Source: Candidatus Dormiibacterota bacterium
Lineage (GTDB): Bacteria; Chloroflexota; Dormibacteria; Aeolococcales; Aeolococcaceae
Reading direction: 5' to 3'
NCBI GenBank assembly: GCA_036561525.1
Contig: DATBPD010000100.1
Location: 2,164-66,163 of the forward strand
Length of the DNA stretch: 64,000 nt
The notes beneath the pieces are model-generated. The model worked only from the letters and a program-made list of their open reading frames with translations, was not told the DNA's origin and did no database searches. Below are positions 46,795 to 48,407 of the stretch, piece after piece (position 1 is the first letter of the stretch; each line of letters starts with the position of its first letter). The position numbers and the translations under genes are program-made.

Positions 46795-47229
46795 ATGGCC
46801 AAGAAGACACGCAAGCAGAAGCAGCGCGCCGTCACACGCCGCCCCGGCCCCGTCTTCCGTCCGATGACGTCCGGCGCGCCGGGCGCTGCGGCGGCGACGG
46901 GGACACCGTCGACGGACGACGACATCGTCGCGGAGCCGCAGCCCCTCCCCGACGCCGCCGCTTCGGTGGCTGCCGACGTCCCGGCGGCCGACCCGGGCCG
47001 GCGGCGCGTGGAGCGCGTGGCGGCGGCGAGCGCCCCTGTGGCGCGCCCCCGGTCCACGCGCGGCCAGACGCAGGGGTACATCCAGGCCCTGGAGAGTGAC
47101 GACGCCGCGATCCCGTTCGACCGCGTGCCCTACGTGCCCGCGGACCTGCGCCGCGTGGCCATCATCGCCGGCCTCATGATCGTGCTCATCATCGTTGCAG
47201 ACATCATCGTCAGCAACGTCGTCAAGTAG
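46795..47229 (+). CDS. Hypothetical tail-anchored membrane protein
   Basis: Basic/disordered N-terminus with no signal peptide; single TM at the extreme C-terminus (YVPADLRR-VAIIAGLMIVLIIVADIIV-SNVVK). Confidence 0.75.
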   Translation: MAKKTRKQKQRAVTRRPGPVFRPMTSGAPGAAAATGTPSTDDDIVAEPQPLPDAAASVAADVPAADPGRRRVERVAAASAPVARPRSTRGQTQGYIQALESDDAAIPFDRVPYVPADLRRVAIIAGLMIVLIIVADIIVSNVVK

Positions 47230-47234
47230 GCGCC

Positions 47235-48407
47235 GTGCGGGTCATCCTCTATACCGGCAAGGGAGGCGTCGGCAAGACGACGGTCGCCGCGGCCACCGCG
47301 GTGGCCTGCGCCAAGCTTGGCCATCGCACCCTGATCATCTCCACGGACGCCGCCCATTCGCTCGGTGACTCATTCGACCTCGAGCTCGGTGATCACCCCA
47401 CCAACATCGCTCCCAACCTCGACGCCCAGGAGATCAACGCCCTCCATGAGATGGAGGAGCACTGGGAGCGCGTCCACAGCTATCTCATCTCTCTGTTCGC
47501 CTCGTGGGGCGTCGACGACTTCGTCGCCGAGGAGATGGCCACGCCACCGGGGATGGAAGAGGTGGCCAGCCTGATGTGGATCAAGCGCCATAAGGAGCAG
47601 GGTGTCTACGACGTGGTCATCGTCGACTGCGCGCCCACCGGCGAGACCCTGCAGCTGCTCGCCTTCCCCGACGTGGCGCGCTGGTACCTCACCAAGATCT
47701 TCCCAGTCGAGCGCAAGGTCTGGAAGGTTGCCCGGCCGATGGTGCAGCCGTTCACCAACATCCCTCTGCCCACCGACGACATCTTCGGCCACATCAAGGA
47801 CCTGCTCTTCGACCTCGACGGCATGAAGAACATCCTCGGCGATCCCAGGACATGCACTGTGCGGCTGGTGCTCAACCTCGAGAAGATGGTGGTCAAGGAG
47901 GCGCAGCGTGCCTTCACGTACCTCTGCCTCTACGACTATCTGACCGACCTCGTGGTGGTCAATCGGATCCTCCCCGACGAGGTCACCGACGAATACTTCG
48001 CCGCTTGGCACCGCTCCCAGAAGAAGTACGACGCGCTCGTGGAGACCGCCTTCTCACCCGTGCCCATCCGCCGCACCCCGCTGTTCGACCACGAGATCGT
48101 CGGGCTCGACACCCTTGCCGAGATGGCGGAGGCGATCTACGGTGACACCGACCCGACCCAGCGATTCCACACCACGGTCTCGCAGCATCTCAAGAAGGTC
48201 GGGGCCAACTACGAGCTGCAGCTGCAGCTGCCCTTTGTCGACAAGGACGAGGTGGACATCACTCACCGCCCCGGTGAGCTTTTCGTCAGCGTCGGTCCGT
48301 ACAAACGCGAGATCAGCCTGCCACGAGTGCTCAACGGCACCCGGGTGATCAGGGGCAAGCTCGATGAGGGGATGCTGCGGGTCACGTTCGCAGGGGCGGC
48401 CCGGTGA
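47235..48407 (+). CDS. ArsA/Get3-family ATPase with C-terminal alpha-crystallin/HSP20-like domain
   Basis: GKGGVGKTT, STDAAHSLGD, DCAPTGETL; single ATPase domain; C-terminal YELQLQLPF...ELFVSVGPYKREISLP...LRVTF. Confidence 0.9.
   Translation: MRVILYTGKGGVGKTTVAAATAVACAKLGHRTLIISTDAAHSLGDSFDLELGDHPTNIAPNLDAQEINALHEMEEHWERVHSYLISLFASWGVDDFVAEEMATPPGMEEVASLMWIKRHKEQGVYDVVIVDCAPTGETLQLLAFPDVARWYLTKIFPVERKVWKVARPMVQPFTNIPLPTDDIFGHIKDLLFDLDGMKNILGDPRTCTVRLVLNLEKMVVKEAQRAFTYLCLYDYLTDLVVVNRILPDEVTDEYFAAWHRSQKKYDALVETAFSPVPIRRTPLFDHEIVGLDTLAEMAEAIYGDTDPTQRFHTTVSQHLKKVGANYELQLQLPFVDKDEVDITHRPGELFVSVGPYKREISLPRVLNGTRVIRGKLDEGMLRVTFAGAAR

Follow-up and report, generated by a model that had tools for sequence, protein, structure and literature searches.

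We have analyzed a stretch of 64,000 nucleotides (nt), here called the window, from contig DATBPD010000100.1 of an uncultured soil bacterium of the class Dormibacteria (Candidatus Dormiibacterota bacterium, GCA_036561525.1; a metagenome-assembled genome of 2.56 Mb, 84% complete). In the window, a gene for a tail-anchored (TA) protein lies between ychF and a gene for an ATPase of the Get3d type, and the ATPase gene is followed by a gene for a protein of 83 residues, below termed the partner. The reading that we prefer, with modest confidence, is that this arrangement is specific to Dormibacteria: a lineage-restricted TA gene is placed between ychF and a conserved module of Get3d and partner, and the adjacency of the TA gene to Get3d is mainly inherited synteny. 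A preliminary description of the same DNA had proposed a genomically linked chaperone-client pair, forming a GET-like module. That proposal was not borne out: one family-level group of the class has the TA family but no Get3d, the linkage is limited to the class, and the flanking genes are as syntenic as the pair itself.

Linkage of the TA family and Get3d within and beyond Dormibacteria

The family-level groups of GTDB within Dormibacteria are denoted f1 to f5, and the host belongs to f1. The class set comprised 50 Get3d-bearing loci, four of them from f5. The region upstream of Get3d was also surveyed at 96 Get3d-type loci outside the class, 20 from other Chloroflexota and 76 from many other phyla (Firmicutes, Actinomycetota, Acidobacteriota, delta-proteobacteria, Planctomycetes, Spirochaetota, Cyanobacteria and archaea).

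Whether the two genes depend on each other can be assessed in f3. Get3d was not found at E<=1e-40 in any of the eight f3 genomes (89-95% complete), nor was the partner gene found in the f3 genomes, and the alpha-crystallin matches seen there were weak and came mostly from short reading frames of the size of small heat shock proteins (sHSPs). The TA family was kept in seven of these eight genomes. At the four f3 loci examined (L052-L055) the TA gene stands directly after ychF, and both the anchor and the motif preceding it (IPL/IPM-[DE]RVPYF) are intact. Judged from gene content, Get3d and the partner are lost in f3 and the TA gene is retained. Since the TA family persists in this Get3d-less group, Get3d is not obligatory for the TA protein, and the survival of the family there implies an alternative insertion route, of the signal recognition particle (SRP)/YidC kind.

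Get3d-type genes were present in 227 of the 401 sampled genomes of the phylum, and the TA family was essentially confined to the class. Outside the class, no convincing TA-like open reading frame (ORF) was found upstream of Get3d, either at the 20 loci from other Chloroflexota or at the 76 from other phyla, and a general rule that a TA gene precedes Get3d was rejected on these counts. Taken together, the distributions show that neither gene needs the other, and a dedicated chaperone-client pair is unlikely.

Inside Dormibacteria the linkage is regular. In f1 the TA gene was upstream of Get3d and on the same strand at all 30 loci (19 genera), with a gap of 3-8 nt at 17/17 loci of the host genus and of 5-140 nt in the remaining genera. 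The order is kept in f2, with gaps of about 45-60 nt, and likewise in f4 and f5; order and strand are common to every Get3d-bearing class locus for which the upstream flank was available. Distances of 200-1000 nt separate the TA gene from Get3d in several genomes of f4 and f5, and the genes found inserted between the two are one or two DUF1003 genes in f4 (L038, L040) and a DUF4446 gene in f5 (L049). The synteny extends well past the pair, as the conserved block comprises ychF, the TA gene, Get3d, the partner gene, nudix and the Na/Ca exchanger gene, and at one locus of the class ask was seen ahead of ychF. Since the whole block is syntenic, the TA-Get3d junction is conserved no better than its flanks. 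Linkage beyond vertical synteny combined with co-occurrence of the families, by which a functional pair was judged, was not found. The synteny survey called for in the preliminary description thus had a divided outcome: order and strand held across Dormibacteria, but none of the 96 outside loci had an upstream TA gene, and f4 and f5 have other genes inserted within the pair.

These results bear directly on the alternative of the TA protein as a dedicated client, whose anchor would be shielded post-translationally in the hydrophobic chamber of a Get3d dimer, perhaps guided by docking of the I-P-F sequence that precedes the anchor on the alpha-crystallin domain, and then delivered to the membrane in a minimal GET-like pathway. 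Such a pathway would agree with the TA topology and the strongly hydrophobic anchor, with the Get3d architecture and intact ATPase motifs of the putative chaperone, with the 5-nt gap and the class-wide gene order, with the invariance of I-P-[F/L/Y] at 15 residues before the anchor, and with the binding of a TA protein by Get3d in vitro (PMC10248533). We nevertheless consider it quite improbable, because the TA protein is unchanged in f3 where Get3d is missing, no TA neighbor was seen at any of the outside loci, unrelated genes lie between the two in f4 and f5, the flanking synteny is conserved equally, and neither an insertase nor a receptor gene was found at the locus (ORF list and Pfam).

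Several observations weigh against regarding the adjacency as mainly inherited synteny. The short spacing seen throughout the host genus is what one typically finds in operons of genes with coupled functions. By a crude count the host genome has about 10-30 TA-like ORFs among about 2500 genes, and an immediate TA neighbor on the same strand would therefore be expected by chance in just about 1-2% of cases. Class-wide, gene order and strand have survived gene insertions, which could reflect selection. Finally, the invariant I-P-[F/L/Y] sequence (I-D-I in f5) keeps its fixed distance of 15 residues from the anchor and resembles the IxI/IPV motifs discussed below.

The arrangement is real, and in the host genus the TA gene, Get3d and the partner gene are probably co-transcribed, as indicated by the 5-nt gap, the 4-nt overlap at the second junction, the lack of an intervening terminator and a conserved promoter-like motif shortly upstream of the TA gene. 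The gap consists of GCGCC, between the TA stop codon ending at 47229 and the GTG start codon of Get3d at 47235, in agreement with the spacing first reported. A scan for sigma-70 consensus sequences and terminators gave nothing in the interval that separates the TA gene from Get3d. A terminator-like hairpin inside the Get3d coding region was also considered and is probably due to chance.

The TA protein and the Get3d-type ATPase

Table 1. Features of the locus and of its surroundings, in window positions.
Feature	Position	Strand	Basis and remarks
TA gene, 144 residues	46795..47229	+	ATG start, TAG stop; ORF list and homologue alignment
Juxtamembrane motif I106-P-F-D-R-V-P-Y-V-P115	47110..47139	+	Invariant alignment columns (I-P-[F/L/Y])
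Transmembrane anchor V121-V143 VAIIAGLMIVLIIVADIIVSNVV, then K144 and stop	47155..47223	+	Hydropathy; AlphaFold2 helix
Get3d-type ATPase gene, 390 residues, GTG start	47235..48407	+	Pfam, NCBIfam, PDB sequence matches, AlphaFold2 and Foldseek
Partner gene, 83 residues	48404..48655	+	Start overlaps Get3d stop (GTGA); conserved adjacency
Conserved 142-nt block	46515..46656	+	73-85% identity over 15 genus loci
Motif CGATCCGATA(A/C)C(C/T)TTGG	46770..46786	+	Conserved columns of the spacer alignment; 3' end 9 nt upstream of the TA start codon
Gene order: hom, thrC, thrB, ask, ychF, TA gene, Get3d, 83-residue partner gene, NUDIX, Na/Ca exchanger, SDR		+	

The ATG at 46795 was taken as the true start of the TA gene because the N-terminus MAKKTRKQKQR is invariant among 22 aligned homologues and no protein conservation was seen further upstream. 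This N-terminus is strongly basic (MAKKTRKQKQRA) and is followed by a variable Pro/Ala-rich linker, a mid motif (RRRVERV, residues 69-75; LVRAVEMSL in other families), the juxtamembrane motif DAAIPFDRVPYVPADLRRV, the anchor, and a short C-terminal tail of one residue here and of up to about eight in relatives. V121-V143 is the sole hydrophobic stretch of the protein (Kyte-Doolittle 19-residue mean 3.1), and hydropathy analysis revealed neither an N-terminal hydrophobic segment nor a second hydrophobic window. AlphaFold2, run with the family alignment, left residues 1-114 disordered except for a short helix at 6-14, and modeled residues 115-143 as one helix. With its sole C-terminal anchor helix, disordered remainder and basic, non-hydrophobic N-terminus, the protein is tail-anchored by the sequence definition, i.e. 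it has a single transmembrane segment no more than about 30 residues from the C-terminus and no signal peptide. The RR before the anchor is consistent with an N-in topology. ORF, hydropathy and modeling results therefore all confirm the first account of a 144-residue protein that lacks a signal peptide and carries one C-terminal transmembrane segment.

IPL, IPF or IPY was present in 238/238 TA homologues among the matches listed, with its first residue exactly 15 positions ahead of the most hydrophobic 19-residue window; the f5 proteins have I-D-I at this position. Pfam, NCBIfam and relaxed Pfam scans matched the TA family to no known family. At least 1638 homologues were found in metagenomes, every one of them named 'hypothetical protein', and those with a lineage-level source label all came from Dormibacteria or from a 'Chloroflexi bacterium'. 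By these searches the TA family is an orphan family specific to Dormibacteria. Distant TA-like proteins with a basic N-terminus, a disordered linker and [YV]xxDLRR[VI] plus anchor occur in other Chloroflexota classes (L157, L158 and L159), and lack the IPx-DRVPY motif. The neighbors of their genes are sortase and DUF308, XerC and PCMT, or ParA/ParB genes, never Get3d; these neighborhoods are inconsistent with one another, and the distant relatives were discarded as a hint to function.

The ATPase contains a single copy of the ATPase domain (PF02374 ArsA_ATPase, 5.8e-91, residues 1-302), followed by an alpha-crystallin domain (PF17886 ArsA_HSP20, 1.9e-18, residues 324-385, window 48204-48389). 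It scored 266 bits against TIGR00345 (GET3/ArsA/TRC40; cut-off 135). NF050088 (Get3_fold_NosAFP) was aligned end to end with 134 bits, below its cut-off of 325, and the protein is therefore of the broader Get3d type and not the Nostoc equivalog. The nearest solved structures by sequence are those of archaeal Get3 (3zq6, 4.8e-49; 3ug6, 3.5e-44), with NosGet3d at 7e-21. The AlphaFold2 model (predicted local distance difference test score, pLDDT, 86.5; predicted template modeling score, pTM, 0.84) has a beta-sandwich at residues 317-385. Foldseek matched this model over its full length, including the beta-sandwich tail, to NosGet3d (8egk, 396 columns) and AtGet3d (8elf), and the match to archaeal Get3 covers the ATPase part. 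The helical subdomain (helices 69-122 and 145-202) has a pLDDT of 65-85 in the single-chain model, and the chamber forms only in the dimer. The earlier assignment as a single-domain ArsA/Get3 ATPase with an alpha-crystallin-like tail is upheld by the two Pfam domains and by Foldseek.

The deviant Walker A sequence GKGGVGKT is found at residues 8-15, together with switch I (STDAAHS) and switch II (DCAPTGET), and VNRILP and PLFDHEIVG match the adenine-contacting Asn and the A-loop region. The CXXC zinc motif is absent from the ATPase, whose only cysteines are C25, C132, C207 and C231, and the region aligned to the CxxC of 3zq6 reads DEYFAAW. By its motifs the enzyme is catalytically intact, and by its sequence it is of the Get3d type, equivalent to the 'group 6' Get3 homologues, as a subtype with conserved catalytic loops. 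Full-length Get3d-type genes were also observed in a large number of other non-photosynthetic lineages, among them Brevibacillus, Paenibacillus, Solirubrobacterales, Terriglobia, Scalindua, Thermoplasmatota and Methanomassiliicoccaceae.

The Pfam name of the main domain, 'Anion-transporting ATPase', might suggest that the protein is ArsA, the subunit of an arsenite pump, and that the small membrane protein is unrelated to it. We find this scarcely conceivable, as the protein is a single domain of 390 residues instead of the duplicated ArsA (A1-A2) of about 580, reaches 90.5 bits against TIGR04291 (cut-off 650), carries a C-terminal alpha-crystallin domain, and has Get3 and Get3d as its best structural matches. 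Furthermore, in line with the preliminary description, no ars genes were found among the neighboring ORFs within about 5 kb (ORF list and Pfam), arsB, acr3, arsD, arsR and arsC all being missing. Membership of the ATPase in BagA or BagB was rejected as well, since it scores 69.7 and 43.1 bits where the respective cut-offs are 400 and 521. Elsewhere in the host genome, at about 16.7-18.6 kb of contig C79, two adjacent ArsA_ATPase matches on the same strand mark a second ArsA-family system, which resembles the mycobacterial BagA/BagB arrangement.

The 83-residue partner and possible roles of the alpha-crystallin domain

Among the Get3d-bearing class loci, the partner gene followed Get3d everywhere except at two of the four f5 loci (tblastn, E<=1e-4), and one of these two exceptions gave a weaker partner match. 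Beyond the class it followed Get3d at 11 of the 20 loci from other Chloroflexota (ten identified by regular expression and one read by eye). Across many phyla it adjoined Get3d at 39 of 80 loci, being directly downstream at 38 and directly upstream at one (L101), and start and stop codons of the two genes often overlap. No partner was found at the 13 cyanobacterial and four archaeal loci sampled. In this family a conserved helix (H[LM]..A.[RK]E.LLA.RSLID) is joined by a basic linker to a C-terminus of the form [IV]x[IV][ED], which is V-E-L-D in the window and literally DIPID or EIPID at several loci. NCBIfam and Pfam, the latter also in a relaxed scan, gave no match to the family. Its distribution indicates that the 83-residue protein is a widely conserved partner of Get3d, and as such a better general lead than the TA protein.

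In sHSPs, the IPI tail (IxI/V motif) docks in the beta4/beta8 groove of alpha-crystallin domains, and BAG3 carries IPV motifs. By analogy, the partner tail probably docks on the alpha-crystallin domain of Get3d, as an IxI partner acting in trans.

In the mechanism that we envisage for the preferred reading, Get3d and the IxI-tailed partner would constitute the functional module. The Get3d homodimer would act as an ATP-driven holdase for hydrophobic segments, with the C-terminal tail of the partner docked on its alpha-crystallin domain. The TA gene would be a lineage-specific membrane protein gene that has been inherited beside this module; its product would be inserted without depending on Get3d, and would be at most a facultative client, or an interactor via I-P-F. 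Holdase behavior in vitro has been shown for the Get3d proteins of Nostoc and Arabidopsis.

It is, in our view, rather doubtful that Get3d has the TA protein as one of its physiological clients or interactors. A bolder proposal takes the alpha-crystallin domain as a receptor for IxI motifs presented in trans, where the partner tail would regulate or adapt the chaperone, and where the I-P-[F/L/Y] motif of the TA protein would dock and the anchor be handed to the chamber. We regard this proposal as unlikely. Docking of I-P-[F/L/Y] is opposed by the equal conservation of the motif in f3, where Get3d and the partner are missing, and by its being embedded in a longer invariant context, DRVPY, that IxI docking does not explain. 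If the proposal were true, a native client and an accessory partner would be identified for a bacterial Get3 homologue for the first time, and the alpha-crystallin domain, so far unexplained, would gain a role. The TA protein being independent of Get3d, binding between the two, if found, would point to chaperoning of a facultative kind instead of a dedicated pathway.

The TA protein could alternatively be a membrane tether or receptor, whose basic N-terminus, RRRVERV or I-P-F would recruit Get3d, the clients then being released to YidC or SecYEG. This would fit the fact that the conserved parts of the protein are short linear motifs in a disordered cytosolic region, the strongly basic N-terminus, the co-orientation and tight spacing of the two genes, and the need of Get3d for new partners according to Barlow et al. 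(PMC10248533). However, f3 has the TA protein without Get3d, many phyla have Get3d without the TA protein, and conservation of the mid motif does not extend to f5 or f3, so that we judge a tether function to be very unlikely.

Surroundings of the locus and comparison with known systems

The window has a G+C content of about 70%, and the spacer between ychF and the TA gene holds two conserved elements (Table 1). The 142-nt block was seen only in the host genus, and at one of 15 loci (L010) it lies the other way round with respect to the genes on either side. RNAalifold predicted two hairpins for it that show hardly any covariation (1 of 32 pairs). Positions 46300-48800 gave nothing relevant when compared with Rfam at E<=1, and hence the block does not correspond to a known RNA. 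Because of the inversion at L010, the block is probably an independent element, perhaps a small RNA gene or a mobile/invertible element. A role as cis leader of the TA operon was considered and is unlikely, the block being confined to the genus and inverted at one locus. The shorter motif, CGATCCGATA(A/C)C(C/T)TTGG, is a candidate promoter of the -10 type that may give rise to a short-leadered or leaderless transcript through the TA gene, Get3d and the partner gene. YchF has been linked to the translation of leaderless mRNA. The spacer upstream of the TA gene in f3 contains a separate conserved stretch, which is near-identical in L052 and L055 and translates to an identical peptide.

Among known systems, the Get3d proteins of Arabidopsis (AtGet3d, 8elf) and Nostoc (All4481/NosGet3d, 3igf/8egk) are like the window ATPase in having a single Get3/ArsA-fold domain, a deviant Walker A sequence and an alpha-crystallin domain, and no CXXC. 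The core of the window ATPase is closer to archaeal Get3 than to NosGet3d (3zq6 at 4.8e-49 versus 7e-21), and it matches the adenine-contacting Asn and the A-loop, which AtGet3d and NosGet3d lack, and in this respect is like the type found in green non-sulfur bacteria and Sll0086. In vitro, a yeast TA protein is bound by Get3d, the alpha-crystallin domain being dispensable for binding, and its native clients and partners are unknown in the literature (PMC10248533). The alpha-crystallin domain sits where Get4 would bind, as seen in the solved structures of Get3d; according to Barlow et al. it is without the usual oligomerization features, and they speculated that it might bind soluble parts of specific TA clients (PMC10248533). 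The TA neighbor and the IxI-tailed partner gene of the present locus are mentioned neither in that study (PMC10248533) nor in PMC6593721. The locus thereby supplies two candidates beside Get3d, namely a native TA protein and a cross-phyla partner with an IxI-like tail.

Unlike Nostoc and Arabidopsis, the host of the window is non-photosynthetic. The occurrence of the Get3d type in non-photosynthetic lineages agrees with Bodensohn et al. 2019, who listed group 6 for Chloroflexi, Actinobacteria, Firmicutes and other phyla (PMC6593721), and speaks against an exclusive link to photosynthesis. The same study holds that the bacterial group 6 homologues may be general chaperones, their presence being uncorrelated with the abundance of TA proteins (PMC6593721). 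TA proteins of Escherichia coli that are inserted by SRP/YidC (cited in PMC6593721) resemble the window TA protein in having one anchor, at the C-terminus, and in lacking a signal peptide; the window protein differs from them in belonging to a Dormibacteria orphan family and in its disordered cytosolic part. BagA/BagB of Mycobacterium tuberculosis (Rv3679/Rv3680) belong to the same superfamily as the window ATPase, but are encoded by two ATPase genes instead of the single gene found here.

With the eukaryotic and archaeal GET/TRC40 systems (Get3 with Get1/Get2 or WRB/CAML, and Get4/5) the locus shares the ATPase fold and the presence of a TA-type protein. It differs from them in that the ATPase lacks CXXC and that no homologue of Get1, Get2, Get4, Get5 or Sgt2 is found at the locus. 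RRRVERV and the basic N-terminus of the TA protein are reminiscent of the basic Get2/CAML motif that binds Get3. To our knowledge, targeting activity has been shown for no bacterial Get3 homologue. With the sHSPs, finally, Get3d has in common the alpha-crystallin fold of its tail, and both the partner C-terminus ([IV]x[IV][ED]/IPI) and the I-P-[F/L/Y] motif of the TA protein resemble IxI/V; in contrast to the sHSPs, the motifs would here come in trans, from separate small proteins.

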